Source: Dehalococcoidia bacterium
Lineage (GTDB): Bacteria; Chloroflexota; Dehalococcoidia; E44-bin15
DNA: 64,000 nt
Reading direction: 5' to 3'
NCBI GenBank assembly: GCA_035528575.1
Contig: DATKYK010000005.1
Span: forward strand, 30,381-94,380
The translations under genes were made by a program, and so were the position numbers. Under the pieces are notes generated by a model, which saw nothing but the letters and a program-made list of their open reading frames with translations, searched no databases and was not told the origin of the DNA. This document shows positions 4,150-37,568 of this stretch, one piece after another. Each line of letters begins with the position of its first letter. Position 1 is the first letter of the stretch.

Positions 4150-4228
4150 GTTTCCTCCCTGTTTTCACCTTGATACACTTTTCACCGAGGTCTTACTCTT
4201 GTGAGCACAACGTGCCACATTTGCAACC

Positions 4229-5424: not shown

Positions 5425-5439
5425 TTTTCTACCTCCTCT

Positions 5440-21405: not shown

Positions 21406-21996
21406 ACTATTTATCAAAGCTCTACCTGGGCTTCAGGCAGCGCAATACGCTTCTTAGATGGCTGGACAAGCAAAACCAGAAATGCTTCCGCAAGGTAGGG
21501 GTGGACCGCTGGTAACGCAATAAGCGAGCTTTCCCGATACCTAATAGAACATAACATCACCGGCACTCATCCCTAGAAGCCTGATGATCTCACACAAGGC
21601 CCCGCCACCATATCCTACTGCATAACAATTCTGGAAGTCGCATTCTGTCACATTATTCACAAACTGTCAAGCATCAAACCAGAGCACATCAAGGTGTCGC
21701 CAGAGCTGTAAAGCGATAGCCCTGTCGTACCGCCTCACCTCGGCCAGCGAATCCACTGCCAAAAGGGGTAATCTCAGGCTACTGAGAGAATATCTCATGA
21801 AACAGGGAGGATTCAAGTACATTGCCCAAGAGCAGATAAATGAACTTCAGGGCTGGATAAATGCCCGGTGCCAACTTTGCCTGGACCGGGCTAACGAATT
21901 TATAGAAAGTGCTCTCGCTTACCAAGGACTGGAAGGAAAAGAAAACGATAACCAACCTCAAGGAGTGAGCAATTCTATGATTGTGCTTTTTTTCAC

Positions 21997-22025
21997 TTTA
22001 CAAAAAAAATGACATGTTGTATAAT
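21997..22025 (+). promoter_or_regulatory. Sigma70-like promoter of the nuo operon (-35 TTTACA, 17-nt spacer, -10 TATAAT)
   Basis: tttacaaaaaaaatgacatgttgtataat, ~55 nt upstream of the nuoA TTG start. GGAGGGG RBS. Confidence 0.5.
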
Positions 22026-22081
22026 GCCAAAAGTTGTTGTAAAATACTGCAGGTTTCCAAATTAACTCGGAGGGGCGATAT

Positions 22082-22453
22082 TTGCTAGGTGACTTCGGTT
22101 ACATTGGAATTTTCCTCGTTGCTGCTCTTGGTTTTACCGCCTCAATGATCCTAATCCCCGTTACCCTCAGGCTCCTCCACATCGTCCCCCGGAAGCCCAA
22201 CCCCACAAAGTACACCACCTATGAGTGCGGCATGGAAACGATAGGCAACTCCCGGGTTCAATTCAACTTCCGCTATTATTTCTTTGCCCTGCTCTTTGTA
22301 ACCTTCGATGTACAGGTGGTCTTTCTCTATCCCTGGGCAGTGGAGCTAAAGCAGCTTAAGCTCTTCGGGCTGGTGGAGATGCTGGCATTCGTACTGATCC
22401 TGATGGTCGGTTTTGTCTATGCGTGGAGAAAGGGGGTTCTAAAGTGGAAATAG
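22082..22453 (+). CDS. nuoA: NADH-quinone oxidoreductase subunit A
   Basis: 123 aa, 3 TM. ...[40 protein letters not shown]... conserved NuoA core. TTG start. Confidence 0.85.
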
Positions 22454-23040
22454 AGATGCCCTATGTGAGCAGCGAGCTGGATAAGACCGAGGGCGCGGAA
22501 ATAGAGGCGCTCATCGCAGCTTCAAGGGAGCCCTATCCCGATCCGGTAGCCTGGCTCCATGAGGAGCTTCAGCGCAATGTGCTGCTTACCTCAACCGAGC
22601 ACGTTATAGACTGGGGGAAGCGCTACTCTGTCTGGCCGGTTCTCCTGGGGCTCGCCTGCTGCGCCTTCGAGATGATCTGTGCTGCTGCTTCGCGCTATGA
22701 TTTCTCTCGATTCGGCATGGAGGTTTTTCGCTTCTCCCCACGCCAGGCCGACCTGATGCTTGTTGCCGGCACGCTCACCTGGAAGATGGCCCCAGCCCTG
22801 AGGCGAATCTATGATCAGATGGCCGAGCCGAAGTGGGTCATAGCTATGGGGGCCTGCACTATCAGCGGTGGGGCATTCCGTGGTTCCTATAGCGTGGTTC
22901 CCGGGATAAACCTCATCGTCCCGGTAGACGTCTACATCCCCGGGTGCCCGCCTCGCCCCGAGGGTCTGCTCCACGGATTCATGGAGCTGCATCGCAAGGT
23001 CTTGAAAGACAAACTTATAAAGAAAGAAAAGGATGACTAA
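22423..23040 (+). CDS. nuoB: NADH-quinone oxidoreductase subunit B (N2 cluster subunit)
   Basis: Motif GLACCAFEM...GACTISGG...IPGCPP (four Cys ligands of cluster N2). The true start may be the ATG at 22456, directly after the nuoA stop. Confidence 0.85.
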
Positions 23041-23497
23041 GCAGCTTTCCGGCCCAGAGGTCGCACAGCAAGTAGGAGGGCGATTCCCCGACGCGATCAC
23101 TGGTTCCGATGAAACCGCTGTTTTCGTCCGCGGCGAAGCGCTTCTTGAAGTGGCGCGCTTCATCAAAGAGAGCCTCGATCTCGATTACCTCAACAGCATC
23201 ACCGCCGTCGATTACATCGACTATTTCGAACTGGTATACCTTCTAACCTCGCTAGAAAATAACCATAGCATCATCTTAAAGACGAGGTGCGATGAGCGCG
23301 AAAATCCCAGGCTGCCCTCGGTGGTCAGCCTGTGGCAGGGGGCCGATTTTCAGGAGCGCGAGATCTATGACCTCATGGGCATCTCCTTTGAGGGACACCC
23401 CAATATGAAGCGAATCTTCCTCTGGGATGGGTTCAAGGGGCATCCTCTGAGGAAGGATTTTGTTATAGACGTGCCGGGCGGTGGGAAAGCGACGTAG
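23033..23497 (+). CDS. nuoC: NADH-quinone oxidoreductase subunit C (30 kDa)
   Basis: 154 aa. ...[42 protein letters not shown]... matches the NuoC core. Confidence 0.8.
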
Positions 23498-23507
23498 CAG
23501 GGAGTAA

Positions 23508-24611
23508 ATGACGCTCAAGACCGAGCCAGTCACTATTAATATAGGGCCGCAGCACCCCTCAACCCATGGGGTATTTCGGATGAGGGTCACCTTCGATGGC
23601 GAGGTGATCGTCGATATGGAGCCCATCTTTGGCTACCTCCACCGCGGGATCGAGAAGCTCGCAGAGCATAAAACCTACACCCAGAATATCCCCTTTACCG
23701 ATAGGCTGGACTACCTGGCCTCGATGTCCAATAACTTTGCCTACGTGCTAGCGGTGGAGAAGCTTGCCGGTATCGAGGTCCCCGAGCGGGCAGAATATAT
23801 CAGAATAATAATGGCCGAGCTTATGCGGATTGCCAGTCACCTCATGGGAGTGGGATTTTTCTTCAACGACATGGGAGCCTTCATGACGCCGGTCCTTTAT
23901 ATGTTACGCGAGCGGGAAAAGATCCTAGACCTCTTTGAGATGGCCTGCGGGCAGCGCCTGACCTATAACTATATGCGCTTCGGCGGGGTTAGCCACGATA
24001 TCCCCCAGGAGTTTATACCGGCACTGAAGAGGTTTATCGGTGAGATGCCCCGCTATATCGATGAATACGACCAGCTTCTTGCCGAGAACGAGGTGGTACT
24101 TGCCCGCGCCAAGGGAGTGGGCATTCTACCAGCGGATAAGGCAATCAACGCTTCGGTCGCCGGCCCGGTGCTGCGTGCCAGCGGGGTAAAGTGGGACCTG
24201 CGCAAGGCAGATCCCTACTCTATCTATGACCGGTTCGATTTCGACATCCCTACCGGCACCAATGGCGATAACTACGACCGGTACCGGATTAAGATAGAGG
24301 AGATTAAGCAGAGCGTGCGCATTATCGAGCAGGCTATGGAGCAGATTCCCCAAGGGGAGGTACGCACCAGGGTATCGCCGACATTCAAGCCGCCTAAAGG
24401 GGAAGCCTACGGCAGGGTGGAGGGCCCCAAGGGAGAGCTGGGCTTTTATCTGGTGAGCGATGGCTCTGCTAAACCCTATCGCTTCAAGGTACGTGCCCCA
24501 ACACTACTAAACCTCACCGTACTCCGCGATATGATTATCGGACGGATGCTGGCAGATGCCATAATCACCTTTGGCAGCATTGACATCTGTATGGGCGAGG
24601 TGGATCGCTAG
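23508..24611 (+). CDS. nuoD: NADH-quinone oxidoreductase subunit D (49 kDa)
   Basis: 367 aa. [39 protein letters not shown]...ICMGEVDR matches Nqo4/NuoD end to end. Confidence 0.9.
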
Positions 24612-27600
24612 TGGGCGTTCTCGAGCAGTTCCAGGATTGGCTGCTGGGCTATATCCCCGGTTGGGCAGCATACCTCATACCCGTAGTCATCGCCTTCGCC
24701 ATCCTCTCCACCTTTATTCTGCTTGTGGTAATGGCCTTTATTTACATCGAGCGGAGAGGGATAGGAAGATTCCAGGTTCGCCAGGGGCCCAATCGAGCAG
24801 GCCCACAGGGCATCCTTCAACCGGTAGCAGATGCCATCAAGATACTGCTGAAGGAGGACATCATCCCCATCCTGGGGGACCGCTGGGTTCACTGGCTAGC
24901 CCCCATAATAATCTTCACTCCCGTATTAATGATCTTCGCTATCATACCCTGGGGCCACGGTGCTTTCATCGCCGACCTTAATATCGGCATACTTTACATA
25001 ATAGCGATATCCTCTCTGAGCGTAGTTGGTATTTTCATGGCGGGGTGGGGCTCAAGCAATAAATACTCCCTGCTTGGTGCCATGCGCGCTGTGGCCCAGA
25101 TGGTAAGCTATGAGATCCCGCTGGTGCTCTCCATCATTGGTGTGCTCATAATAACCGGCTCCATGTCCATGGTGAGTATCGTGGAGGCACAGACCGTGCC
25201 CTTCCTTCTGCTCCAACCCTTGGGGTTAATGATCTTCTTCCTGGCAGCAGCCGCAGAGATCAACCGCAGCCCCTTCGACCTCCTGGAGGCAGATTCGGAG
25301 ATTGTCGCCGGCTTCCATACGGAATACTCCGGAATGAAGTATGGCCTCATTATGCTCGGGGAATACGCTCACGCCTTCGCCGTTTCCGCTATCCTGACCA
25401 CCCTTTTCCTCGGTGGAGGCAGCGGGCCACTACTACCGGCGGTGTTGTGGTTCATGATTAAGGTGTTACTGGTTTTTGTCACCCTCGTATGGATACGGAG
25501 CACCCTGCCCCGGCTCAGGGTGGACCAACTGATGGAGTTTGCCTGGAAGTTCCTCTTCCCACTGGCATTGGCAAATATCTTTATCACCGCGATTGAGGTT
25601 ATCGTCTGGCCCTCGTTCCCCTGGTGGCTTATGTTCATTAATATCCCCGTCGCCATCATACTCATTATCCTATGGTCAAGTATGTTCAGGGTGTACGGGG
25701 AGAGGTTTAGCCTCAGGCATTTCGGCCGTGGCGTTGCCAAGGGGATGGCTCTTACCTTCAGGCATCTTTTACGCAGCCCCATCACGGTACAGTATCCTGA
25801 GCAGCGGCTCAATGTTTCCAGGCGGGCACGGGGCCAACGATTTATACGGGATGAGCGCAAACGGGCTCCATGCATTGCGGCGTGCCCTGCCAGCGTGGAT
25901 GTGCAGGGATATGTCTCTCTTATCACCCAGGGTCGATTTGTTGAAGCGGTTGAGCTCATCAGGCAAACCAATCCCTTCCCCGTCGTCTGCGGGCGGGTCT
26001 GCACCCACCCCTGCGAAACGGCCTGCAACCGGGGATCTATGGATAAAGCGGTCGCCATCCGTGAACTAAAGCGCTTCGTGACCGACTATGAAATGAGCGT
26101 AGGCAGGGGAGAGATAATGCCGTACCCCCGAACCAAAGACGAGCGGGTAGCGGTTATTGGCTCAGGGCCTGGAGGGTTGACCGCCGCCCGCGATCTGTCG
26201 AGGATGGGCTATGGGGTGACCGTCTTCGAAGCGCTCCCGGTCGCCGGCGGGATGATGTCGGTAGGTATTCCGGAGTATCGTTTGCCCAAAGCGGTGCTGC
26301 AAAAGGAGATCGATGGAATACTGCAGCTTGGTGTTGAACTGAAGCTGGAAAGCCCCCTAGGCAAAGATGGCCTGACACTGGAATCGCTCAAAGGACAAGG
26401 CTATAAAGCCATTATCATGTCCGTGGGTGCCCATGAAAGCATGAAACTGGACATCCCCGGCGAAGACATTGAGGGAGTATATCACGGGGTTTTTTTCCTC
26501 AGGGATGTACTCCTGGGCAAAAAGGTCAAGGTGGGAAATAGGGTCGCCATAGTTGGCGGAGGTAATGTGGCCATCGACGCTGCGCGAACCGCCCTCCGCC
26601 TCGGCGCCAAGGAGGTAACTATTGTTTACCGCAGGTCGCGGCAGGAGATGCCCGCCGCTGAGGAGGAGATAGAGGATGCGGAGGCCGAGGGGATCAATAT
26701 CCATTATCTGGCGGCGCCGGTCAGGGTTGTTGAAGATGGAGGGAAGCTGGCAGGCCTGGAGTGCATTCGGATGGAGCTGGGCGAACCCGATGCCAGCGGC
26801 AGAAGGCGCCCGGTACCCGTCGATGGGTCGGAATTTATACTCGACATCGACATGCTCATTCCCGCCATCGGTCAGGTCACTGACCTCTCCTGCTTGCCCC
26901 ATGATCACAAACTTAATATCACAAAGAGAGGGACATTCGAGGTCGACCCCCTCAGCATGGCTGCCAACATATCCGGCGTCTTCGCCTGCGGGGATGCCGT
27001 GAGCGGGCCCAAGACTGTGGTTGAGGCTATCGGGGCAGGAACCAAGGCTGCCCTCGCCGTCGACTGCTACCTTCGCGGCGAAAAATTCGGAGAGCTGGAG
27101 CCAGTGCTGCCACTAAAGGAGGTAGCTTTCGAGGATCTCGATATCAGCGATGTCGAGAGTAAAGAGAGGGCAAAGGTATCCCACTTACCGGTTAAGGATA
27201 GGATCCGCAGCTTCGAGGAGGTAGCCCTCGGCTTTTCAGAAGAGACGGCTATAGAGGAAGCCAACAGGTGCCTCAACTGTGGCTTCTGTGCCTGGTGCCG
27301 GCAGTGCGAAAATGCCTGTCCCTACGGGGTTATCAGGATAGTACCCCAGGAGACCCCGGAGGGTACGACCGGAGTGGAAAGGTTTGACATCGACCTCGGA
27401 GAATGTATATTCTGCGGCCTGTGCATCGAGGCATGTCCGGCACACCGACTATATCTATCGAGAATATACGAAGCATCCTGTTACCGGCGGGGAGACCTAT
27501 TACTGGATAAGGAGGGGCTAATACCATCCCCCGAAAAACAGCCGAGTGCCTATGCCCGTCCCGAGATTGAGCCTGCCCTGCCCAAACAGGCCCTTCTACT

Positions 27601-27652
27601 GGACAATAACCGGGTGGTTGAGGAGGAGAGAGAGAAGGAAAAGGTGACGTGA
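24611..27652 (+). CDS. nuoH/nuoI: Tripartite fusion: NuoH (aa 1-~330), an extra TM helix, the NuoI N-terminal segment, a GltD-like NAD(P)H/FAD oxidoreductase domain (~440 aa), the NuoI 2x[4Fe-4S] ferredoxin domain, and an acidic/basic tail
   Basis: The N-terminus matches NuoH through ...[50 protein letters not shown] is an added TM segment. [38 protein letters not shown] aligns with the NuoI N-terminus. [54 protein letters not shown] matches the GltD/DPD Fe-S N-domain. [17 protein letters not shown] is the FAD Rossmann motif and [31 protein letters not shown] the NAD(P)H Rossmann motif. [12 protein letters not shown] and [12 protein letters not shown] are the two NuoI CxxCxxCxxxCP motifs. No separate nuoI gene exists, and nuoJ overlaps the stop by 4 nt. 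Confidence 0.8.
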   Translation: [1013 protein letters not shown]

Positions 27653-28143
27653 TTGGTTTAGATATTGCCTTCTGGATTCTGGCGGTGGTGAGCGTTAGTG
27701 CGGCTCTGGCGGTGGTACTACTGCGCGATGTCTTCCGCGCCGCACTTTTCCTGATGCTATGCTTCCTCACCGTTGCCGGAATCTATATCACCCTGAGTGC
27801 CGATTTCCTTGCCGGCGCACAGGTGCTCATCTATGTGGGGGCCATCGGGGTGCTTATCATCTTCGCTATCATGCTTACCAGAGAGAGCCAGCGGGGCAGC
27901 CCCTCGGGGCGACTACGGCTCCCTGCCTTACTGATAGGGCTTTTCTTTCTAATAACCATGCTCTTTGTGGTGTTGAATACCGATTGGCATGTCGTCGCTG
28001 AGATTCCCACCCAGCCCACCACATCAGCGATCGCAGATGCCCTGTTTAATAAGGTGGATGGCTTCGTCCTTGCCTTCGAAATAGCAGCAGTGCTTCTGCT
28101 GGCAGCGATAATCGGGGCTATAGTGCTGGTGAGGGAGAAATAG
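27649..28143 (+). CDS. nuoJ: NADH-quinone oxidoreductase subunit J
   Basis: 164 aa, 5 TM, ND6-like. Position and size fit between the nuoH/I fusion and nuoK. Confidence 0.8.
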   Translation: MIGLDIAFWILAVVSVSAALAVVLLRDVFRAALFLMLCFLTVAGIYITLSADFLAGAQVLIYVGAIGVLIIFAIMLTRESQRGSPSGRLRLPALLIGLFFLITMLFVVLNTDWHVVAEIPTQPTTSAIADALFNKVDGFVLAFEIAAVLLLAAIIGAIVLVREK

Positions 28144-28146
28144 ACG

Positions 28147-28452
28147 ATGTCTGTTGGACTCGAGCATTTCTTGATCCTTTCAGCGGTGCTCTTCTCTATC
28201 GGGCTCTATGGCGTTCTGGCAAAGAGAAATGCGGTGATAATCCTGATGAGCATCGAGATAATGCTTGCTGCAGTGAGTATCTCTATGGCGGCTTTCTCCC
28301 GGTATAGCCATGTCATCACCGGACAGGTCTTTGTCATCTTTATTATGGTAGTCGCTGCCGCCGAGGTTACGGTTGGTCTGGCGCTTATAATTACCATCTA
28401 TCGAAGAAAGAAAACTGTGGATGCAGAGAAATTCGATCTAATGAAGTGGTAG
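28147..28452 (+). CDS. nuoK: NADH-quinone oxidoreductase subunit K
   Basis: 101 aa, 3 TM, ND4L-like (LEHFLILSAVLFSIGLYGVLAKRNAVIILMSIEIMLAAV). Confidence 0.85.
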   Translation: MSVGLEHFLILSAVLFSIGLYGVLAKRNAVIILMSIEIMLAAVSISMAAFSRYSHVITGQVFVIFIMVVAAAEVTVGLALIITIYRRKKTVDAEKFDLMKW

Positions 28453-28456
28453 TACT

Positions 28457-30379
28457 ATGCCGAATGTAGCAGTTTGGGCCATATTTCTATTGCCGTTCTT
28501 CTCCTTCCTCATTATCGCACTGATATTGAGGCCGTTTTTCAATCATAAGCCCCAGTTCAGCGCGTATACTACTATTTTTGCCATAGCGGGCTCTCTCGCA
28601 CTTTCTATCTGGGCACTAATCTCGGTCAATGGAGCGGAGCATCATGTCCTGACGGACGTCAGCTACCAGTGGTTGTCCATCGGCGATATGGCGATCAATA
28701 TTGGTATTACGATGGACTCGCTGGCAGCGATAATGGTAGTTGCAGTCAGCACCATAAGCTTACTGGTACAGATATACTCCATAGGTTATATGAAGGGAGA
28801 CGGGGGACTTGCCCGCTATTTTGCCTTCATGTCGCTTTTCACCGGTTCGATGCTGGGGCTAGTGATGGCCAACAACCTCCTCTTCCTGTTTCTGTTCTGG
28901 GAGGGTGTAGGGCTCTGCTCATACCTCCTTATCGGATTCTGGTTCCATAAGCCCGAGGCAGCTAGGGCAGCGATGAAGGCCTTCTTGGTAACCCGTCTCG
29001 GTGACTTCGGCTTCCTGGTCGCGGTCATACTCCTCTACGTCAAAACCGGCACATTCGATATCGGGGAACTTCATACGCTCGCCCTTGCGGGGGTACTAGG
29101 CGGTTCAACGCTTACCTTAGCGGCTATCGGCATCTTCTCGGGGGCGGTGGGAAAATCGGGCCAGTTCCCACTACATGTATGGCTCCCCGATGCCATGGAG
29201 GGCCCGACACCAGTCAGTGCCCTAATCCATGCCGCTACCATGGTAACTGCAGGCGTCTACTTGGTTGCGCGTATGTTCCCCGTGTTCGCATCATCGGAGA
29301 CAGCGATCACTATAGTGGCCATAATTGGAGGCTTTACCGCAATATTCGCTGCTTCTATGGGTCTGGTGGCGACCGATGTTAAGCGCGTTCTGGCATACTC
29401 CACCATCAGCCAGCTCGGCTATATGATGCTGGGACTGGGAGCAGTCGGTATAGGTTATGCCAGCGGTCACTTAGATGAGCATCATGCCCTGGCGCTGGGT
29501 GTAGCGGTGGCAATCTTCCATCTGTTCACCCATGCCTTCTTCAAGGCGCTACTCTTCCTGGGAGCAGGCAGCGTCAGCCACGCTACGGGAACCTTCGATA
29601 TGCGGATGATGGGAGGACTCAGGAAGGTGCAACCCTGGACATATGCCACCTTCGTAATAGGCTCATTGAGCCTTGCCGGGATCTGGCCGCTGGCGGGATT
29701 CTGGAGCAAAGAAGGCATCCTGCACGAAGCAAATGCGTACACTCCAGTTTTATTCTGGTTAGCGATGATCACCGTCTTCATGACCGCCTTCTATATGTTC
29801 CGCGCAGTATTTCTCACCTTCCATGGAGAGTACCGGGGTGATGTGGAAGGCAGTCATAGCCATGGCCTGCATGAGTCGCCCAAGATTATGATCATCCCAC
29901 TTGTTATTCTAGCCATATTTGCAGTAATTGCGGGGTGGCTGCCAGTTGGAGATTTCTTAGGGGCGGATGTCCATTTCAGCTTCTTTGGCGCCCTCACCAG
30001 CTGGTTGGCCTGGGCGTCGCTCGGTTTTGGAATCGCCGGTATCTTGCTAGCCTATGCCATATACGGAAGGAAGCTAGTGTCAGCGAAATCTATCGGGCAG
30101 AGCCTTGGCCCCATCTATACCTTACTCATCCGTAAATACTTCTTTGATGAGCTTTACGAGAGATTCTTCTTGATGAGATTCTTTATAGACGGCATTTCCG
30201 CCGCCCTTGAATGGATCGACACATACATTGTTGACGGTGCGGTAAACGGCATCGCCACGGTTACAGTGGCGGGCGGGAGCCTTATGCGGAGGCTAGAAAC
30301 GGGACAGCTACAGGTCTATGGACTGTCCATATTTGTCGGCATCCTGGCAATCGTAGCTTTCCTGCTCATATTTAGCTAG
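28457..30379 (+). CDS. nuoL: NADH-quinone oxidoreductase subunit L (antiporter-like)
   Basis: 640 aa. ND5/MrpA-type antiporter core (...WLPDAMEGPTPVSALIHAATMVTAGVYL...). Confidence 0.9.
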   Translation: MPNVAVWAIFLLPFFSFLIIALILRPFFNHKPQFSAYTTIFAIAGSLALSIWALISVNGAEHHVLTDVSYQWLSIGDMAINIGITMDSLAAIMVVAVSTISLLVQIYSIGYMKGDGGLARYFAFMSLFTGSMLGLVMANNLLFLFLFWEGVGLCSYLLIGFWFHKPEAARAAMKAFLVTRLGDFGFLVAVILLYVKTGTFDIGELHTLALAGVLGGSTLTLAAIGIFSGAVGKSGQFPLHVWLPDAMEGPTPVSALIHAATMVTAGVYLVARMFPVFASSETAITIVAIIGGFTAIFAASMGLVATDVKRVLAYSTISQLGYMMLGLGAVGIGYASGHLDEHHALALGVAVAIFHLFTHAFFKALLFLGAGSVSHATGTFDMRMMGGLRKVQPWTYATFVIGSLSLAGIWPLAGFWSKEGILHEANAYTPVLFWLAMITVFMTAFYMFRAVFLTFHGEYRGDVEGSHSHGLHESPKIMIIPLVILAIFAVIAGWLPVGDFLGADVHFSFFGALTSWLAWASLGFGIAGILLAYAIYGRKLVSAKSIGQSLGPIYTLLIRKYFFDELYERFFLMRFFIDGISAALEWIDTYIVDGAVNGIATVTVAGGSLMRRLETGQLQVYGLSIFVGILAIVAFLLIFS

Positions 30380-30395
30380 AAATTAGGAGGAAAGG

Positions 30396-31877
30396 TTGGA
30401 TTTTCCTTATCTATCGGTAATAATTTTCCTCCCCCTCATCGGGGCAATAGTCATTGCCCTGCTGGGGGCTAACCACAGGCGTATAAAGCTCACTGCCACT
30501 GCCTTTGCCGCGGTATCGTTTATATTGTCGCTGGCTCTCTTCTCCATGTTCGACCGCTCACTTGACGGGCCCCAGTTTGTGGAACAGGTGTCGTGGATCC
30601 CGGCAATCGATGTCCAGTACTTTATGGGCGTCGACGGGTTAAGCCTGCCCTTAGTAATCCTTACCACCTTTATCGGCCTCGTCGCAGTGCTTGTATCGTG
30701 GAAGATAGACCTCAGGGTCAGGGAATACTTTGCCTGGCTCCTGGTACTGGAAACGGGCATCCTGGGAGTGTTCTGCTCCCTGGATCTTCTCCTATTCTTC
30801 ATCTTCTGGGAGGTGGAGCTGATACCGATGTATATGCTCATCTCCATCTGGGGCACGGGGAGGAAGGAGTACTCGGCAATCAAGTTCGTCCTCTATACCC
30901 TCTTCGGCAGCGCCTTTATGCTTGCCGGCATCCTGCTTCTCTATTTCCAGGCGGGTACCTTCGATATGATAGCGCTGGCGGGAATGGGCCTCGACTCCAT
31001 CCTCAGCTCAATGATGGCAGCGTCGATATTCTTCCTTATTATCGCTGCCTATGCGATTAAGCTGCCCATTTTCCCCTTACACACATGGCTCCCCGATGCG
31101 CATACCGATGCCCCAACCGCGGTGAGCGTAGTGCTCGCCGGAGTGCTCCTCAAGATGGGGGGCTACGGTATGATACGGGTTGCGGTGGGCATATTCCCTG
31201 AGACTGCGCATAGCTATGCGCCGTTCTTCATTGTGCTAGCGGTTGTCGGTGTGATTTACGGTGCGGCATTGACGTTGCGGCAGACCGATCTAAAGAGACT
31301 GATCGCTTACAGCAGCGTGAGCCATATGGGCTTCGTCCTACTCGGCATTTTTGCCTTATCCCATGTGAGCATGACCGGCGCCGTGCTGCAGATGGTCAGC
31401 CACGGCGTCATAACCGGACTCCTATTTGCGTCGGTTGGGCTAGTCTACAGCAAAACGCATGAGCGTAGCATCCCCAAGCTTGGCGGGCTGGTGCGTCAGA
31501 TGCCGGTAGTCGCGGTCGTCTTCAGCATTGCCGGCCTTGCCGCCTTGGGCCTTCCTGGCACTAGCGGTTTCGCCGCCGAGGTCATAACCTTCATTGGTAG
31601 CTTCGGCAGCACCATGGTTTCCGGCATTCAGGTCTACACCATTCTGGCAATTACCGGGGTGGTGCTGGGTGCGGGGTACATCCTGTGGATGCTGCGGCGC
31701 GTGTTCTACGGCCCGCCTAGGGATGAATATAATGGTGCACCCGATGCTGACAGGCTGGAAAAGGTGTACACATTCGCCTTTATAGCTTTGATCATGCTCA
31801 TCGGGCTCTATCCGGCAATACTCACCGATGTTATTAAACCAAGCATTCAGTCAATTCTTGGGGTGTTCAGTGGGTGA
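30396..31877 (+). CDS. nuoM: NADH-quinone oxidoreductase subunit M (antiporter-like)
   Basis: 493 aa, ND4-type (...WLPDAHTDAPTAVSVVLAGVLLKMGGYG...). Confidence 0.9.
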   Translation: MDFPYLSVIIFLPLIGAIVIALLGANHRRIKLTATAFAAVSFILSLALFSMFDRSLDGPQFVEQVSWIPAIDVQYFMGVDGLSLPLVILTTFIGLVAVLVSWKIDLRVREYFAWLLVLETGILGVFCSLDLLLFFIFWEVELIPMYMLISIWGTGRKEYSAIKFVLYTLFGSAFMLAGILLLYFQAGTFDMIALAGMGLDSILSSMMAASIFFLIIAAYAIKLPIFPLHTWLPDAHTDAPTAVSVVLAGVLLKMGGYGMIRVAVGIFPETAHSYAPFFIVLAVVGVIYGAALTLRQTDLKRLIAYSSVSHMGFVLLGIFALSHVSMTGAVLQMVSHGVITGLLFASVGLVYSKTHERSIPKLGGLVRQMPVVAVVFSIAGLAALGLPGTSGFAAEVITFIGSFGSTMVSGIQVYTILAITGVVLGAGYILWMLRRVFYGPPRDEYNGAPDADRLEKVYTFAFIALIMLIGLYPAILTDVIKPSIQSILGVFSG

Positions 31878-32292
31878 GATAAAGGTAGCAGTTGGAGCCG
31901 TGATCGGTGATGAGGAGGGGCGGGTCCTGCTAGTAAAGCATGTGCCGGAGAGGAATGGTTTCTGGCAGGGGAAATGGATCTGCCCCGGGGGTACACTGGA
32001 ATTTGGGAAAGGTATCGAGGAGGGAATAACGAGGGAAGTGAAGGAGGAAACCGATCTCCAGATACAACTGCAGACTCTGCTACCTCCCTTCGAGCGGATC
32101 GTAAAGTCGGATAGTGAGACAACGCTTCACGTTATTTACATTGATTCTATAGCACGCTTGATCGGGAGGGAATTCCGACCGGGCAGCGACGTGGGCGAAG
32201 GAATCTGGGTTTCACCAGAAGATCTCCCGAAGATATGGGATGATCTGCACGAGGATACCCAGAAGCTACTAAATTTAGCGAAGGTGGTTTAA
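31870..32292 (+). CDS. NUDIX hydrolase inserted between nuoM and nuoN
   Basis: Nudix box GGTLEFGKGIEEGITREVKEETDL (GX5EX7REUXEEXGU). Likely GTG start at 31870, overlapping the nuoM stop. The ORF track's longer form starts at 31828. Confidence 0.65.
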   Translation: MGEIKVAVGAVIGDEEGRVLLVKHVPERNGFWQGKWICPGGTLEFGKGIEEGITREVKEETDLQIQLQTLLPPFERIVKSDSETTLHVIYIDSIARLIGREFRPGSDVGEGIWVSPEDLPKIWDDLHEDTQKLLNLAKVV

Positions 32293-32302
32293 GGAGCGAG
32301 CA

Positions 32303-33724
32303 TTGGATCTTTATCTGTTGTCACCTGAGATAAGCCTCCTGGCCCTGGCTCTGGTTGTGATCCTCCTCGACCTATTCATCAAGGAAAAGTGGATCCTGGG
32401 ATGGGTGAGCATTATCGGGCTCATCGTGCCTGCCATCTTCGCTCTATCCCTATGGGGTAGAAATGAGACATCCTTCGGCGGCACGCTGGCTGTTGACTAT
32501 TTCTCTATCTTCTTCTGCCTACTTTTCCTAGGAGTGGCAGCTCTAATACTACTGTCCTCTACTGAGTATGCCCGTAAGTTCAACGCCTTTCGCGCGGAGT
32601 ACTATGCCCTGGTGCTCTTGGCTACCACGGGGATGATGTTGCTGGCATCAACTAGGGAGCTGATCTCTATCTTCATAGCCCTAGAGTTGACCGGAATATC
32701 TCTTTATGTCTTAACCGGCTTTCTCAAGGATCCCAAGTCCAGCGAGGCGGGATTGAAGTACCTGCTCCTGGGTGCAGTGGCCAGCGCGGTGCTGCTATAT
32801 GGTATGGCGCTTGTCTTCGGGCTAACCGGTACCACCCATCTTGAGGGGATTGCCGCGGCTATTTCATCTCAGAGTCTGTTGGCAAGTCCGGCGCTCCTCA
32901 TGGGCATCGTTCTACTAGTTGCCGGCTTCGGCTTTAAGATCGCCAGCGTTCCCTTCCAGATGTGGGTCCCCGATGTTTATGAAGGGGCGCCCACACCAAT
33001 TACCGCTTATCTCTCTGTAGCCAGCAAGGCGGCGGGCTTTGCGATTGTACTGAGGGTCTTCTATGAGGCCTTCGGGGCGGCGAGCGCGGACTGGGGGATG
33101 ATATTCGCCGTGATTGCTGCCATCACCATGACCGTAGGCAATGTGGTCGCCATCGCCCAGAAGAACATCAAGCGCATGCTGGGGTACTCCAGCATCGCCC
33201 AGGCGGGCTATCTTATAATCGGGCTGGCGGCGGTTACCACCCAGGCAAGTAGCGCGCTAATCTTCTTCCTGGCATGCTACGCCCTCACCAATCTTGGGGC
33301 GTTTATCGCCATTATTGCCATCTCCAACAAGATCAACAGCGATGAAATCGCTGACTATTCCGGTATGGTGCGGCGGGCCCCGCTATATGCCATAGCCTTG
33401 GCGCTCTGCCTCATCTCACTTGCCGGCATCCCGCCTACCGCAGGGTTCATGGCCAAGGTCTATATCTTCAGTGCCGGCGTTAACGCCGAGCTGTTATGGC
33501 TGGTTATCATTGCCGTTATTAACTCGGTGATCTCGGCATACTACTATTTGAGGGTAGTACGCGTGATGTTCCTGGGAGAGCCACTATCAGAGGAGAAGGT
33601 ACATGCCTCAATTGGGCTCCGCGTTGCACTTTCCATCGCCTGCCTCGGGGTGTTAGCGCTCGGTATTTACCCCTGGATGCTGATGAAGTTTGCAGAGACT
33701 GCCGCTAGTATCTTTCTCCCTTGA
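32303..33724 (+). CDS. nuoN: NADH-quinone oxidoreductase subunit N (antiporter-like)
   Basis: 473 aa, ND2-type (...WVPDVYEGAPTPITAYLSVASKAAGF...). Confidence 0.9.
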   Translation: MDLYLLSPEISLLALALVVILLDLFIKEKWILGWVSIIGLIVPAIFALSLWGRNETSFGGTLAVDYFSIFFCLLFLGVAALILLSSTEYARKFNAFRAEYYALVLLATTGMMLLASTRELISIFIALELTGISLYVLTGFLKDPKSSEAGLKYLLLGAVASAVLLYGMALVFGLTGTTHLEGIAAAISSQSLLASPALLMGIVLLVAGFGFKIASVPFQMWVPDVYEGAPTPITAYLSVASKAAGFAIVLRVFYEAFGAASADWGMIFAVIAAITMTVGNVVAIAQKNIKRMLGYSSIAQAGYLIIGLAAVTTQASSALIFFLACYALTNLGAFIAIIAISNKINSDEIADYSGMVRRAPLYAIALALCLISLAGIPPTAGFMAKVYIFSAGVNAELLWLVIIAVINSVISAYYYLRVVRVMFLGEPLSEEKVHASIGLRVALSIACLGVLALGIYPWMLMKFAETAASIFLP

Positions 33725-33808
33725 CAGCCCTTATGAGCAATGCTAGACTTCCCAGTGCAATTTAGCCTAAAAATCTTTGTTGTTTTGATTAGGTATTGAG
33801 AGCAGTTC

Positions 33809-34624
33809 TTGAAGCGGGTTGGTATTCTCTATCATCCAAAGATCGCTGCTGCCAGGGCTTTTGCCGAGGAGTTGGCAGACTTTTTACCCTCCCTGAATGC
33901 GCTTGTTTGGCTCTGTTCTGCCTGGGATGAGGAGAGTGCCGGGGCCCAGATTGAGAGCACGGAGCTAGTCCTCAGCATTGGCGGCGATGGCACTATATTG
34001 CGGGCAGCGCGCGCTGTCGCACCTAAGTCCATTCCCATTGTGGGGATAAATCTGGGCAGGCTTGGGTTTATGACCGAGCTTAGCGTTGAGCAGGCTAGGG
34101 ATGGACTCACTGCCTTACTGGCAGGAGAGGGCTGGGTTGATGAGCGCGCTATGCTCCAGGCAAAACTGCCAGGCAAACGAACATATCATGCCTTAAACGA
34201 CATTGTCATAGGGCGTGGCGCCATATCCAGGGTAATCTACGTGGAGACCACCATCGATGGTGCTCCTTTAACCACCTACAAGGCGGATGGTGTCATTCTC
34301 GCCACTGCAACCGGAAGCACAGGACACTCCCTGGCCGCAGGTGGACCCATCCTCTATCCCCAGTCTAGGGAGATCCTATTAAACCCCATTTCCCCCCACC
34401 TCACCTTCGCCAAGGCGGTGGTGCTTCCACCCACAGCCATCGTTGAGCTAAAAGTGCACACCGACCATCAAGCGATGCTCAGCATCGACGGTCAGATTAA
34501 CCTGTCGCTGGAAAGCGGTGATGAAGTTAAGGTCAACCTCAGCCATCACGTAGCCCGTTTCCTCAGGGTTCAGCCGCGTGGCTATTACTACACCGTCCTG
34601 ATGGAGAGATTGGTGCCAAAATGA
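33809..34624 (+). CDS. nadK: NAD(+)/NADH kinase
   Basis: 271 aa. GGDGTILRAAR and NDIVIGRG...DGVILATATGSTGHSLAAGGPI motifs. TTG start. Confidence 0.85.
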   Translation: MKRVGILYHPKIAAARAFAEELADFLPSLNALVWLCSAWDEESAGAQIESTELVLSIGGDGTILRAARAVAPKSIPIVGINLGRLGFMTELSVEQARDGLTALLAGEGWVDERAMLQAKLPGKRTYHALNDIVIGRGAISRVIYVETTIDGAPLTTYKADGVILATATGSTGHSLAAGGPILYPQSREILLNPISPHLTFAKAVVLPPTAIVELKVHTDHQAMLSIDGQINLSLESGDEVKVNLSHHVARFLRVQPRGYYYTVLMERLVPK

Positions 34625-35085
34625 AGGCGGAAAGGGCCCGCATTAGTGACATACCTCATATTCACAAGCTGGTCAATCACTTTGCCGATAAGGGAGAGAT
34701 GTTGCCCCGCGCCCGGAGCGAGCTCTATGAGAACGTGAGGGACTTTTTCGTGGTACTCGATGACGAACAACTGGTTGCCTGTGCCGCGCTTCATATATTC
34801 TGGTCCGATCTGGCAGAGATAAGGGCTGTATCCGTGGTCGAGGGGATGCAGGATCAGGGGGCCGGCACTCTGCTGATTCAGGCTTGCCTTGAAGAGGCGA
34901 CTAGTATGGGGATGAAGACCATCTTCTGTCTCACCTACAGGCCCGATTTCTTCGAGCACTTTGGCTTTCGACAGGTGGACAAAAAGGAGCTACCGCACAA
35001 GATATGGGGGGAGTGTTTTCGCTGCCCCAAGTTCCCCGACTGCGATGAGGTGGCACTAATTTATAAGCCGGAATCTTCGTGCTGA
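34621..35085 (+). CDS. GNAT-family N-acetyltransferase (N-acetylglutamate-synthase-like)
   Basis: 154 aa. Acetyl-CoA binding segment VSVVEGMQDQGAGTLLIQACLEEA. Confidence 0.6.
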   Translation: MKAERARISDIPHIHKLVNHFADKGEMLPRARSELYENVRDFFVVLDDEQLVACAALHIFWSDLAEIRAVSVVEGMQDQGAGTLLIQACLEEATSMGMKTIFCLTYRPDFFEHFGFRQVDKKELPHKIWGECFRCPKFPDCDEVALIYKPESSC

Positions 35086-35624
35086 TGGATGAGCAAACCC
35101 TAGACAGCAGACAAATATATGACGGGCGCCGGGTGAAACTTCGCCTCGATAGGGTGGTGCTCCACGGCGGCAGGGAGACCACCCGGGAGGTGGTAGAGCA
35201 CCCGGATTGTGTCGCCATTATTGCCCTCGACGCGGATGATAATGTTATCCTGGTACGCCAATTTCGCCAAGCGGCAGCGCAAGAGCTTCTGGAGGTCCCC
35301 GCCGGCGTCATCGAACCCGGCGAGGAGCCACTGAAGAGTGCCCTGAGGGAGCTAGCGGAAGAGAGCGGGTATATCGCCGGGAGGATTGAGCGGCTTGGCG
35401 GTTTCTACAGCAGCCCGGGATACTCCACCGAGTTTTTGCACCTTTTCCTCGCCACTGAACTCAAGCCCGGTCCCAGCCAGGCCCATGAGGACGAGATTTT
35501 GGAGGTGGTACCCATCCCATTGAAACAGGTTCACCGCCTGATTAAATCGGGTGAGATCCGGGATGCCAAGAGCATAGCCGGCCTCTTGGCCCTATCCCTG
35601 CACCGGGGGAAGAGCGAAGCATGA
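35079..35624 (+). CDS. nudF: ADP-ribose pyrophosphatase (NUDIX)
   Basis: 181 aa. Nudix box GVIEPGEEPLKSALRELAEESG plus a NudF-like N-terminal beta domain. Confidence 0.75.
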   Translation: MLMDEQTLDSRQIYDGRRVKLRLDRVVLHGGRETTREVVEHPDCVAIIALDADDNVILVRQFRQAAAQELLEVPAGVIEPGEEPLKSALRELAEESGYIAGRIERLGGFYSSPGYSTEFLHLFLATELKPGPSQAHEDEILEVVPIPLKQVHRLIKSGEIRDAKSIAGLLALSLHRGKSEA

Positions 35625-36841
35625 GAATTTGCCTCCTTTGCAATAGGGGGAATATGTACAGTGGGGGGCAGGGGATTTATCTCTATTACCTGTCCCGCGA
35701 GCTTAAGAAATTGGGGCACGAGGTTCATGTCATTGTCGGTCCTCCCTATCCACATATTGCCGAGGGTATCACGGAGCACCGCCTAAAAAACCTGAACCTC
35801 TTCGAGTTCGGATTCCCCAAGAAAGACCCGTTCCAGGTTTTCACCCCGCTCAACCTCTACGAGCTGGCGGCAACCAGGATGGGTATGTTCCCCGAGATGT
35901 TCTCATTCAGCATCAGGGCCTACCAGAAACTGTGCCAGCTCCGTCGCCATCTCCACTTCGATATCATTCATGACAATCAGACCCTGGGCTATGGCATGCT
36001 TCTGATGAAGGCGTTTAAAATACCTGTGGTGGCTACCGTTCACCACCCCCTACCCATCGACAGAAAGACCGATATCGCCTATATACACAGGGCATGGGAG
36101 AGATTCGGCAGGATAATGTTCTACCCGCTGGTAATGCAGCACCTGGTGACCAGAAGAATGGATCGGGTAATCACGGTCTCAGAGAGCGCTGCAGAGGAGA
36201 CCAGGCGCGCCTTCAAGGTTCCCCGAGAGAAGATAAGGGTGGTCTACAATGGCATCGATACCGAGATGTTCCGGGAGCTGGATGGCAAGCGGAAGGAGAG
36301 AGGTCGCCTCCTCGTCGTGGCCAACACCAAGGACCGCAAAAAGGGGGTTATCTACCTGCTTCGCGCCCTTCAGCTACTCCGTGAAGAGATGGATGTGAAA
36401 TTAACTATCGTAGACCGTGGCGCCCCTGATAACGACTATACACCGGCCCTGGTGGAAAGGTTCGGGCTCGATGGAAGCGTCGAGTTTACCGGGAGACTGC
36501 GTGTGGAGGAACTAGTCGAGTGCTACGCAAGAGCCGAGGTGACAGTGGTTCCCTCCTTGTATGAGGGCTTTTGCCTTCCCGCTGCGGAAGCGATGGCCTG
36601 TGGCCTTCCCGTGGTCGCCACTACGGCGGGAGCGCTCCCTGAGGTTGTGGAGGACGGGAAGTGCGGCATCTTGGTGCCACCGCGGGACCACCATGCACTG
36701 GCTGGAGCACTCAAGCGCCTGCTTGACGACGAATCCCTGCGCCAGGCAATGGGGGAAGCGGGAAGGGAAAGGGTAAAACGCCACTTCACCTGGGAGGAGG
36801 CGGCACGGAAAACCCTGGAGGTATACCGGGAGGTAGTTTAG
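35621..36841 (+). CDS. GT4-family glycosyltransferase (paralog 1)
   Basis: 406 aa. GT-B fold, with E...E motif region EGFCLPAAEAMACGLPVVATTAGALPEVV. Confidence 0.8.
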   Translation: MRICLLCNRGNMYSGGQGIYLYYLSRELKKLGHEVHVIVGPPYPHIAEGITEHRLKNLNLFEFGFPKKDPFQVFTPLNLYELAATRMGMFPEMFSFSIRAYQKLCQLRRHLHFDIIHDNQTLGYGMLLMKAFKIPVVATVHHPLPIDRKTDIAYIHRAWERFGRIMFYPLVMQHLVTRRMDRVITVSESAAEETRRAFKVPREKIRVVYNGIDTEMFRELDGKRKERGRLLVVANTKDRKKGVIYLLRALQLLREEMDVKLTIVDRGAPDNDYTPALVERFGLDGSVEFTGRLRVEELVECYARAEVTVVPSLYEGFCLPAAEAMACGLPVVATTAGALPEVVEDGKCGILVPPRDHHALAGALKRLLDDESLRQAMGEAGRERVKRHFTWEEAARKTLEVYREVV

Positions 36842-37566
36842 TGCTTACCGTTAATTTTAACCTTTTTAAGATAAGAGACGGCGACAGGTTTTTAGACGTG
36901 GGCTGCGGTGATGGCAGGCACAGCTATGAAGCATACCGCCTCAACAATGGCAGTGGCATGACATGCTCTATGGATCTCGACGATTTATGCCTCAGGAAGA
37001 CCAAGTATGTGCTGGACCATATGGATCAACAGAACGGGTCCAGTGGTAACCGGAACGTGCTTTGCAGTGACGCCCTGAACCTCCCTTTTAAGGACCACTC
37101 CTTCAACAGGATTATCTGTGCTGAGGTTATGGAACACGTTAAGGATCCCGATCAGGGTATTCAGGAAATGGTGCGGGTACTCAAGCCTGGGGGACTGCTG
37201 GCGGTCACCGTGCCCACCTATGTGCCCGAAAAGGGCTGCTGGATACTGGATTCGGACTACTATAACCATCCCGGCGGCCACGTTAGGATATTCACCGCAC
37301 GAGGGCTGGTGAGGACACTGCGCCGCCATAACCTGGGGGTTTACGCTATTCGCTATGAACATGCCTTCCATTCTATCTATTGGATCCTGCGCTGCATCTT
37401 CGGGCTTAAGAATGAGGATTCAAGGGTTCCCGCGACCTACCTGAGGTTCCTAGAGATGCAGATAACCACCAAGTCCAGGTTTGTTCCCCGGGTAGAACGC
37501 ATTTTCAACTTCATATTTCCCAAAAGCATCGTTATCTATACCCGAAAGCAAAACAGGGGGAGCTAA
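36841..37566 (+). CDS. Class I SAM-dependent methyltransferase
   Basis: Motif I FLDVGCGDGRHS. Post I ...VLKPGGLLAV. Confidence 0.7.
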   Translation: MLTVNFNLFKIRDGDRFLDVGCGDGRHSYEAYRLNNGSGMTCSMDLDDLCLRKTKYVLDHMDQQNGSSGNRNVLCSDALNLPFKDHSFNRIICAEVMEHVKDPDQGIQEMVRVLKPGGLLAVTVPTYVPEKGCWILDSDYYNHPGGHVRIFTARGLVRTLRRHNLGVYAIRYEHAFHSIYWILRCIFGLKNEDSRVPATYLRFLEMQITTKSRFVPRVERIFNFIFPKSIVIYTRKQNRGS

Positions 37567-37568
37567 AG

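Follow-up and report, generated by a model that had tools for sequence, protein, structure and literature searches.

A Nudix hydrolase gene conserved between nuoM and nuoN in the complex I operon of Dehalococcoidia, probably encoding an autonomous housekeeping enzyme

The nuo operon of a Dehalococcoidia bacterium carries, between nuoM and nuoN, a gene for a Nudix hydrolase (31870..32292, plus strand), and, among 80 genome loci that each represent a species, the same gene order was observed in about 50, all from Dehalococcoidia. The gene was analysed within a stretch of 64,000 nucleotides, referred to here as the window. Taking its fold, inheritance and distribution together, we consider that the gene probably encodes an autonomous housekeeping Nudix pyrophosphohydrolase, anciently inserted into the nuo operon and co-transcribed with it, that is not a part of complex I.

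The Nudix gene within the nuo operon

The gene encodes a protein of 140 amino acids, with a GTG start and a TAA stop, that belongs to the Nudix superfamily by the curated threshold of Pfam PF00293 NUDIX (E 2.6e-16, 60.3 bits against a cut-off of 21.1, residues 5-121) and has homologues in 1642 protein clusters, which places the gene far above chance. Its start overlaps the end of nuoM by 8 nt (GTGGGTGA), with the nuoM stop codon TGA (31875-31877) lying within the start of the Nudix reading frame, and its stop is separated from the TTG start of nuoN by a 10-nt spacer (32293..32302, plus strand; GGAGCGAGCA) with a Shine-Dalgarno-like GGAG. A purine run GGGGTG (31860..31865, plus strand), located within the nuoM coding sequence 4 nt upstream of the GTG, also resembles a Shine-Dalgarno sequence and may act in translation of the Nudix gene. 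An alternative TTG at 31858 would give a 144-aa form, as in some homologues; the identical protein is present on three other assemblies, and independent gene calls gave the same boundaries. A minus-strand reading frame of 91 aa overlapping the gene (31847-32122) was treated as spurious.

The genes at both sides are well assigned, NuoM (30396..31877, plus strand, 493 aa) to TIGR01972 NDH_I_M with 542 bits against a cut-off of 263.8 and NuoN (32303..33724, plus strand, 473 aa) to TIGR01770 NDH_I_N with 432 bits against 332.6, confirming the placement of the Nudix gene between them that was proposed in the first-pass annotation. Assignment of the reading frames with Pfam and NCBIfam models defined a nuo operon of the 11-gene type without nuoEFG (22082..33724, plus strand), in which nuoM is preceded, all on the plus strand, by nuoA (22082-22453), nuoB (22423-23040), nuoC (23033-23497), nuoD (23508-24611), a nuoH-GltD-nuoI fusion (24611-27652), nuoJ (27649-28143), nuoK (28147-28452) and nuoL (28457-30379). 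This gene order is repeated in related loci.

The region 21000-36000 was scanned for promoters and terminators by consensus matches, whose total counts were at the level of shuffled sequence; the scan neither proves nor disproves co-transcription of the Nudix gene. The best match, a candidate operon promoter of the sigma-70 type (TTTACA-17-TATAAT, 11 of 12 consensus positions; 21997..22025, plus strand), is located 57 nt upstream of nuoA, and no promoter- or terminator-like site was found in the scanned region at either Nudix junction. The lack of an isolating site, together with the overlapping or very short junctions, makes co-transcription with nuoM and nuoN the natural inference. The Nudix gene has what is expected of a member of the operon: the same strand, short junctions with no terminator or promoter between them, and a conserved order. 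The claim that it is co-transcribed with the membrane-arm genes is thus upheld as regards the arrangement of the genes, while the transcript itself is something that we infer.

Downstream of nuoN, and on the same strand, lie nadK (33809-34624, after a gap of 84 nt), a GNAT N-acetyltransferase gene (34621-35085; NF005840, 208 bits against 154) and, 2.8 kb downstream of the operon Nudix gene, a second Nudix gene (35079-35624) of the YffH/AdpP type, whose product is assigned by TIGR00052 (80.6 bits against 79.55) as a nucleoside-diphosphate-sugar or ADP-ribose pyrophosphatase. The three genes (33809..35624) agree with those originally annotated after nuoN; next to them, up to 38831, are a GT4, a methyltransferase and another GT4 gene. 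A promoter-like sequence with an upstream TG (TTGACA-17-TAGACT, 10 of 12 consensus positions; 33721..33749, plus strand) covers the nuoN stop and the beginning of the gap before nadK, so the nadK block may be a separate transcription unit. This block moves as a unit and remains beside the Nudix gene in genomes that lack nuo at the locus; 18 of the 38 genomes with enough sequence have it no more than 2.5 kb from nuoN. Both this distribution and the promoter-like site in the 84-nt gap speak against treating nadK, the GNAT gene and the second Nudix gene as one functional theme with the operon Nudix gene, as had been suggested.

Fold, catalytic residues and likely substrate

The AlphaFold2 model of the Nudix protein (mean pLDDT 89.6, pTM 0.85) shows a single domain with the alpha/beta/alpha Nudix fold, and neither a transmembrane nor an obvious anchoring segment is present in it. 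Comparison of the model with the PDB by Foldseek gave 607 matches at E <= 0.001, and the best 50 of the 607 were all Nudix proteins. The Nudix box (residues G41-L63; 31990..32058, plus strand; GTLEFGKGIEEGITREVKEETDL) was aligned with the reference consensus G-x5-E-x7-R-E-U-x-E-E-x-G-U. The R55-E56-x2-E59-E60 core is intact in the window copy, but the first Glu of the box is replaced by K47 (codon AAA, 32008..32010, plus strand) and the penultimate Gly by D62. The box had been described as complete; this holds for the four core residues and not for these two positions. The careful alignment that had been proposed as a check on the catalytic residues found R55, E56, E59 and E60 invariant in all 82 orthologues.

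The Gly at position 62 is variable across the family, whose consensus is otherwise a full Nudix box. At position 47, 80 of 82 orthologues have a Glu, among them one that is 96% identical to the window copy, and the change from Glu to Lys has also occurred independently in one other orthologue. Since the identical protein is found on three separate assemblies, K47 is not an assembly artefact. Besides the core, G40, G41 and L63 of the box region and H24, C38, H87, Y90, D107, H127 and D129 are invariant in the 82 orthologues. As judged from this intact catalytic core, the orthologues are apparently active enzymes, and the activity of the window copy itself may be reduced by K47. The first Glu of the box is probably less critical than the glutamates of the RE-x2-EE core; a literature search on its role (Glu-44 in MutT) returned no paper.

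The best structural match of the model was NudI (YfaO; PDB 3n77, 3oga and 6dt3), an enterobacterial nucleoside triphosphatase that is likewise a single-domain Nudix protein of about 140 aa (Foldseek E ~1e-10, TM 0.76-0.81, 26-28% identity) and whose genomic context is unrelated. NudI was also the best NCBIfam match, yet the score of 37 bits against a cut-off of 95 (NF012016) indicates that the window protein is not a NudI orthologue. MutT/MTH1-type and MutT-like proteins (PDB 3grn, 4dyw and 1iry) share the same single-domain fold and loop-helix-loop catalytic motif, and 3grn was the best profile-to-PDB match (E 9e-10), but the scores against the MutT equivalog models were low (TIGR00586, 30.4 bits against 97.9; NF008044, 26.7 against 148) and nothing indicates the 8-oxo-guanine specificity of the MutT 8-oxo-(d)GTP diphosphatases. 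Among the top matches were also the Ap4A/ApnA hydrolases of Aquifex (aq_158, 3i7u) and Thermus (Ndx1, 1vc8), together with DR1025 (TM 0.71-0.77, 21-25% identity). The signature of ApnA hydrolases is a Tyr located 16 to 18 residues past the Nudix box, and this Tyr is missing from the window protein, which has K, S and D at positions +16 to +18. It is on fold similarity that a housekeeping NTP-type substrate class is proposed, as none of the NCBIfam equivalog models comes close to its cut-off.

Enzymes acting on NADH or ADP-ribose (NudC and NudF/YffH/AdpP) have the superfamily and the catalytic box in common with the window protein. The similarity does not go further: the NudC model NF001299 gave 17.5 bits against 158, the motif SQPWPFPxS is absent after the box, where the sequence is QIQLQTLLPPFERIV, the model of the 140-aa protein contains no extra N-terminal or zinc domain of the NudC or ADPRase kind, and the ADP-ribose pyrophosphatase models TIGR00052, NF008003 and NF008736 did not match it. 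The signature of CoA pyrophosphatases upstream of the box, compared by eye, did not fit either. AtNUDX1 is one of the nearest solved relatives of the window protein, and its reported hydrolysis of NADH, among other substrates, counts against a housekeeping enzyme of the NTP type. Altogether, with NudI, MutT and Ap4A hydrolases as nearest relatives, an NAD(H)-related substrate is conceivable, but nothing in these comparisons points to it, and the NADH or ADP-ribose activity initially proposed for the protein finds no support in them.

Inheritance of the gene order and orthologues in other contexts

The junctions of the nuoM-Nudix-nuoN loci are mostly between -8 and +35 nt, and the arrangement is kept among loci whose NuoM proteins are as little as about 56% identical. 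Across 42 loci, the distance matrix of the Nudix protein was correlated with those of NuoM (r = 0.73) and NuoN (r = 0.79), values that were reached in none of 999 permutations, and the mean pairwise distances were of the same order for the three proteins (0.347 for Nudix, 0.325 for NuoM and 0.336 for NuoN). This divergence in step and at equal rate indicates a single ancient insertion followed by vertical inheritance. The co-divergence led us to reject a recent horizontal acquisition of the gene, as did its GC3 (0.567), which is like that of nuoK (0.569), the flanks being at about 0.67. As a feature of how the nuo operon is built, the nuoM-Nudix-nuoN order is a stable marker in Dehalococcoidia.

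The region of nuoH and nuoI was visible in 30 of the genomes with this order: 18 have the two genes separate, three have them fused without GltD and nine have them fused with GltD. With 21 of 30 genomes lacking the GltD fusion, the Nudix insertion predates the NuoH-GltD-NuoI fusion and has a wider distribution, and the connection between both that the first-pass annotation had proposed to check by comparative genomics was not supported. Insertion of the Nudix gene, fusion of NuoH to NuoI and insertion of GltD took place as separate events in evolution, and this bears on how the fusion is to be read.

The Nudix gene is also found at loci without nuo. Six genomes (contigs CAYTKL010000008, CAYUCL010000009, CAZZJX010000101, JAXHUA010000066, JAUWRG010000007 and CAZYLE010000003) have the arrangement holA-x-Nudix-nadK with no nuo genes at the locus, and in this clade nuoA to nuoM and most of nuoN have been deleted, leaving the Nudix gene intact; at one locus, a nuoN remnant with an internal deletion (aa 1-44 plus 308-471) is the sole trace of nuo. 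These copies are nested among the nuo-embedded ones in a neighbour-joining tree that, being based on a protein of 140 aa, is weakly resolved. Orthologues were also found at about 23 further loci whose contexts are unrelated. Orthologues follow era-der in six Thermodesulfobacteriota genomes, the [NiFe] hydrogenase cluster FlpD-hydS-hydL-hycI in four Dehalococcoidales genomes, larA-HTH in three genomes of the archaeal Methanocellales and fabD-nusB in two genomes, and are found also near holA or dnaE. Orthologues in unrelated contexts and phyla are 56-66% identical. Judged from locus neighbourhoods, the six nuo-deleted and the other loci indicate that the Nudix gene does not occur obligately with nuo.

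Mean column conservation hardly differed between copies embedded in nuo (0.74) and those located elsewhere (0.73), and when a binding surface peculiar to the copies within nuo was sought by differential conservation, R18 was the one position found. This result, the persistence of the gene after deletion of nuo and the orthologues found elsewhere speak against the proposal of a function dedicated to complex I. The orthologous group as a whole, hitherto uncharacterised, is tightly conserved, with 56-96% identity across Dehalococcoidia, Thermodesulfobacteriota and Methanocellales and with distinctive invariant residues; its presence in the last two groups may reflect transfer.

In the literature searched, we found no report of nuoM and nuoN being separated by a Nudix gene. 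The complex I genes of Dehalococcoides mccartyi are presumably DET0923-0933. For this species the literature states that 11 complex I subunits are encoded; the papers give this number only, and adjacency of nuoM and nuoN without an insert was not confirmed from them. No link of a Nudix gene to complex I of Dehalococcoidia was found in the papers searched either, including PMC4453560 and PMC7117926.

Role of the Nudix protein and comparison with known systems

The explanation that we favour is that the reading frame encodes a soluble single-domain Nudix pyrophosphohydrolase, structurally of the NudI, MutT or Ap4A-hydrolase type, whose gene would have entered between nuoM and nuoN once, in an ancestor shared by much of the Dehalococcoidia, and would have been passed on vertically with the operon since then. 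The gene would be transcribed from the nuo promoter, and its translation, to judge from junctions that overlap or are very short, would be coupled to that of the two flanking genes. The most likely task of the enzyme would be a general housekeeping one, the hydrolysis of a substrate of the nucleoside polyphosphate type, for example (d)NTPs, canonical or damaged, or dinucleoside polyphosphates. The protein would work alone, neither as a subunit of complex I nor as a dedicated sanitiser of NAD(P)H or ADP-ribose, and the position in the operon would mainly provide steady co-expression and make loss of the gene difficult without polar damage to nuoN. Among the points against this explanation, a gene order so stable at NuoM identities of about 56% usually signals a functional link, and a location in the middle of the membrane-arm genes, not at the end of the operon, is unusual for a passenger gene.

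An alternative that we regard as unlikely is that an autonomous Nudix enzyme is functionally coupled to the NuoEFG-less complex I, with their co-expression under selection. The enzyme would then remove or regulate a nucleotide-type metabolite important to complex I or to the redox state that the complex controls, for example a product of cofactor breakdown, a dinucleotide acting as inhibitor or a nucleotide used in signalling. The mid-operon place kept with coupled junctions in some 50 species-level genomes and the divergence at equal rate with NuoM and NuoN are in line with such a tie, as is the occurrence of the four Dehalococcoidales orthologues after a [NiFe] hydrogenase and HycI, that is, in another energy-metabolism operon. 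Furthermore, the electron donor and the accessory needs of the 11-subunit, NuoEFG-less complex I-like enzymes are still unsettled (PMC11238625, PMC6005880), and a functional tie, if true, would offer a new handle on this complex I of strict anaerobes. On the other hand, the gene is intact after nuo deletion, orthologues lie after era-der, after fabD-nusB and, in the archaeal genomes, after larA-HTH, with others close to holA or dnaE, a single position is specific to the nuo-embedded copies, and the insertion occurs irrespective of how the NuoH/NuoI input region is built.

We are still more doubtful that, in a large clade of Dehalococcoidia, the NuoEFG-less complex I has gained a dedicated Nudix partner, which could be a peripheral accessory protein on the cytoplasmic side of NuoM and NuoN or a co-regulated enzyme controlling a nucleotide-type effector or a cofactor of the complex. 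The copies elsewhere would in that case be secondary escapes that retained the catalytic role alone, and this would be the first case of a respiratory complex I equipped with its own nucleotide hydrolase. It appears improbable as well that the protein is a pyrophosphatase for NADH, damaged NAD(P)H or ADP-ribose that forms, with NadK and the downstream Nudix protein, a sanitising or regulatory module for a complex I whose input, at the GltD-like domain, may be NAD(P)H. The presence of nadK and of a YffH/AdpP-family Nudix gene directly downstream in the window, the persistence of the Nudix gene beside nadK in the nuo-less clade and a public record that labels a homologue "NADH pyrophosphatase", an automatic name, would favour such a module. 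Against it, the insertion mostly occurs without the GltD fusion, nadK is near nuoN in fewer than half of the genomes compared, the NudC score is low and its motif missing, the ADP-ribose pyrophosphatase models that match the second Nudix protein miss the one in the operon, and the best structural neighbours, with no added N-terminal domain, are NTP and ApnA hydrolases. Least probable of all is that the protein docks as an accessory subunit or assembly factor on the cytoplasmic face near NuoM and NuoN, produced in subunit-like amounts through translational coupling, since this idea, for which the nucleotide-binding accessory subunits of mitochondrial complex I offer an analogy and which would agree with the overlapping or very short junctions to two membrane-arm genes and with an evolutionary rate equal to that of core subunits, is opposed by catalytic residues as strictly conserved as expected of an enzyme and not of a structural module, by orthologues that persist in the absence of nuo and in other phyla with the same constraints, by R18 being the one position specific to the nuo-embedded copies and by a model with no membrane-spanning or anchoring segment.

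The Nudix gene carried within nuo has a counterpart in the extra, non-subunit genes of other nuo/nqo units. The nuo/nqo operons of Paracoccus and Rhodobacter also contain unidentified reading frames, and there, as in Dehalococcoidia, a gene that is not a Nuo gene lies inside the operon. The present case differs in that the insert is an identifiable enzyme and is conserved in about 50 species-level genomes.

Position and conservation of the Nudix gene within the nuo operon

The compact nuo operon of the window (22082-33724, + strand) contains nuoA, B, C, D, a nuoH-GltD-nuoI fusion of 1013 aa (24611-27652, +), nuoJ, K, L, M and N, and nuoE, nuoF and nuoG are absent from it. NuoL, NuoM and NuoN scored above the cut-offs of NCBIfam models NF005141 (647 bits), TIGR01972 (542 bits) and TIGR01770 (432 bits), respectively. 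The Nudix ORF (31870-32292, +) starts at a GTG (31870) within the final codons of nuoM, whose TGA stop is at 31875-31877, resulting in an 8-nt overlap, and ends at a TAA (32290-32292) separated by 10 nt from the TTG start of nuoN (32303). This spacer, GGAGCGAGCA, contains GGAG. Pfam NUDIX recognises the 140-aa product (E 2.6e-16), and a large protein database yielded 1642 clusters of homologues. The location of this ORF between nuoM and nuoN, noticed in the first-pass annotation, was confirmed because three other independently assembled contigs encode an identical protein, and their gene calls reproduce both the overlap with nuoM and the gap to nuoN.

A consensus scan for promoters and terminators, whose overall counts equalled the shuffled-sequence level, revealed no promoter- or terminator-like site at either Nudix junction. 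The top promoter match (11/12) was found just upstream of nuoA (21997-22025), and another (10/12, with an upstream TG) in the 84-nt nuoN-nadK gap. From the lack of such sites at the junctions, co-transcription with nuoM and nuoN would be the natural inference, and the overlap with nuoM suggests that both genes may be translationally coupled. Together with the short overlap and gap, these data uphold the proposed operon membership.

Relatives of the Nudix protein come nearly all from Dehalococcoidia metagenome-assembled genomes (MAGs). In a scan limited to a single genome for each species, with genes labelled by BLASTP against the window proteins, the nuoM-Nudix-nuoN order was observed in about 50 of the 80 loci, with junctions mostly of −8 to +35 nt; it was also present on two long contigs (metagenome and NCBI). 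For 42 loci with full-length proteins, pairwise Nudix distances correlated with those of NuoM (r = 0.73) and NuoN (r = 0.79), values reached by 0 of 999 permutations in both cases, and the NuoM-NuoN correlation was 0.88. Mean pairwise divergence was alike for the three proteins (0.347, 0.325 and 0.336 for Nudix, NuoM and NuoN, respectively). Since divergence rates are equal and distances correlate, the data fit a single ancient insertion followed by vertical inheritance; they also fit purifying selection as strong as that on the core membrane subunits. The GC3 of the Nudix gene (0.567) is below that of its neighbours (~0.67) and equal to that of nuoK.

The NuoH/NuoI region was visible in 30 genomes with the nuoM-Nudix-nuoN order: nuoH and nuoI were separate in 18, fused without a GltD domain in three, and joined as nuoH-GltD-nuoI in nine. 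The co-occurrence of insertion and GltD fusion, which the first-pass annotation had proposed to check, is thus not specific, and the Nudix insertion is older and far more widespread than the fusion. The direct NuoH-NuoI fusions (~526-575 aa, no GltD) of three related genomes (L003, at 4190-5770, L021 and L058) are apparent intermediates of the 1013-aa protein. The suggested order is separate nuoH and nuoI, H-I fusion, and then GltD-like insertion, within a clade already carrying the Nudix insert.

Two further ORFs of the window were observed from their translation only. One, of 607 aa (18852-20675, −), combines a signal-like segment at the N-terminus and a hydrophobic anchor at the C-terminus with many tandem, parallel beta-helix-like repeats of the 'TMTxCTVSGNxAxxGGGIYN' type, and is probably a surface protein. 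The other, of 308 aa (15296-16222, +), has a signal-like N-terminus and a FFFSGHG ... GSCHSGG pattern that may resemble the caspase/peptidase C14 His-Cys dyad.

The Nudix gene outside the nuo operon

Six genomes showed the arrangement holA-x-Nudix-nadK-GNAT-Nudix2 (Nudix2 being a second, YffH/AdpP-type gene), with nuo genes absent at that locus. In a weakly resolved neighbour-joining tree of the 140-aa protein, these copies formed one clade nested among nuo-embedded copies. At locus L023, nuoA-M are gone and a nuoN remnant with an internal deletion (10434-11025; residues 1-44 joined to 308-471) lies directly 3′ of the Nudix gene after the usual 10-nt gap. Given this nesting and this remnant, the nuo operon appears to have been deleted at these loci and the Nudix gene retained, with all catalytic residues intact. 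L023 seems to capture the nuo operon in the course of decay.

Orthologues 56-66% identical to the window protein were found in unrelated gene contexts. In six Thermodesulfobacteriota / 'Deltaproteobacteria' MAGs (L047, L061, L062, L065, L066 and L067; 59-62% identity) the gene directly follows era and der (EngA), which are ribosome-assembly GTPase genes, and overlaps der in L067; in three Methanocellales MAGs it is preceded by larA-like and HTH genes. In the tree, both sets branch from within the Dehalococcoidia copies; this suggests that the gene was transferred horizontally from Dehalococcoidia to both groups. Two genomes have the gene behind fabD-nusB, and another one has it flanked by a PD-(D/E)XK nuclease gene and dnaE. 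In four Dehalococcoidales genomes (L040, ~8334; L050 and L051, ~9995; L052, ~9992) it lies after FlpD-hydS-hydL-hycI, which encode a FlpD/MvhD-like protein, the small and large subunits of a [NiFe] hydrogenase and the HycI maturation protease. About 0.8 kb downstream of it in L052 begins an Mrp/Mbx-like cluster with nuoK-, L-, N-, A-, B-, C- and D-like genes.

This second association with an energy-metabolism operon, along with a remarkably stable mid-operon position, would speak for a physiological coupling of the enzyme to complex I. We consider such a coupling unlikely, in view of the nuo-less loci and the unrelated contexts.

Type of Nudix enzyme

The AlphaFold2 model was confident (pLDDT 89.6) and predicted nothing beyond one Nudix domain, an additional N-terminal domain being absent. 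The closest solved structures were those of NudI/YfaO (TM 0.76-0.81, 26-28% identity), DR1025, the Ap4A hydrolase of Aquifex, and MutT1 and MutT-like proteins, and PDB sequence and profile searches agreed with these matches. Every NCBIfam equivalog scored far below its cut-off (NudI, 37 vs 95 bits; MutT, 30 vs 98; NudC, 17.5 vs 158), and ADP-ribose pyrophosphatase models matched the second Nudix (35079-35624) and gave no match to the window protein. Given this architecture, the substrate is more likely a nucleoside polyphosphate, of (d)NTP or ApnA type, than NADH or ADP-ribose, with NAD(H) a less probable candidate. Since the catalytic residues plus H24, C38, H87, Y90, D107, H127 and D129 are invariant in 82/82 orthologues, the protein can be assigned to a distinct, uncharacterised orthologous group.

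The Nudix box of the window copy, GGTLEFGKGIEEGITREVKEETDL, is not complete as had been claimed: its first conserved Glu is replaced by Lys (K47, codon AAA, 32008-32010), with the metal-binding core R55-E56-x2-E59-E60 intact. At position 47, 80 of 82 orthologues carry Glu, among them one with 96% identity, and the change to Lys arose independently in L037. K47 is a real variant, as three assemblies made independently from this population (SRR8554511, SRR8554512 and SRR8554643) carry it.

The first-pass annotation had envisaged an NAD(P)H or ADP-ribose sanitising module linked to the GltD fusion and to the downstream nadK and nudF genes. Of that proposal operon membership stands, and the ties with NAD(P)H, with the fusion and with nadK and nudF do not. 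The nadK-GNAT-Nudix2 block lay within 2.5 kb of nuoN in only 18 of the 38 genomes that offered sufficient sequence and, where found, forms a conserved block of its own that also includes two GT4 genes and a methyltransferase gene. With the profile scores also against it, such a module is improbable. In the window this unit (33809-38831, +) runs nadK, GNAT (NF005840), YffH/AdpP-type Nudix, GT4 glycosyltransferase, methyltransferase and GT4 glycosyltransferase; it is kept in at least 24 genomes, nuo adjacent or not, and lies beside a convergent methyltransferase gene (38828-39595, −).

A role as accessory subunit or assembly factor of complex I, to which the place among membrane-subunit genes might point, is very improbable: mean column conservation was 0.74 in nuo-embedded and 0.73 in other copies, R18 was the sole position conserved specifically in the former, and this comparison revealed no hint of an additional surface for binding the complex.

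Origin of the arrangement and comparison with known operons

The reading that we favour, with moderate confidence, is that of an autonomous housekeeping Nudix pyrophosphohydrolase. One insertion would have placed it between nuoM and nuoN, where it would be co-transcribed with both genes and probably translationally coupled. Its position would persist for two reasons: the gene itself is required, and cutting it out of the interior of an essential operon is difficult. The importance of the gene would grow considerably only if it were shown to associate physically or functionally with the complex.

Paracoccus and Rhodobacter operons contain unidentified reading frames. We found no report in the literature of a Nudix gene between nuoM and nuoN, and public records name the protein merely 'NUDIX domain-containing'. 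Extra genes within nuo transcription units are mentioned in the Figure 1 legend of PMC11238625, and Dehalococcoides encodes a complex of 11 subunits that lacks NuoEFG and for which neither role nor donor is clear (PMC6005880; PMC11238625). Against this background, the protein adds a new, uncharacterised member to a very well-known superfamily, and the nuoM-Nudix-nuoN arrangement is an undescribed, probably incidental variant.
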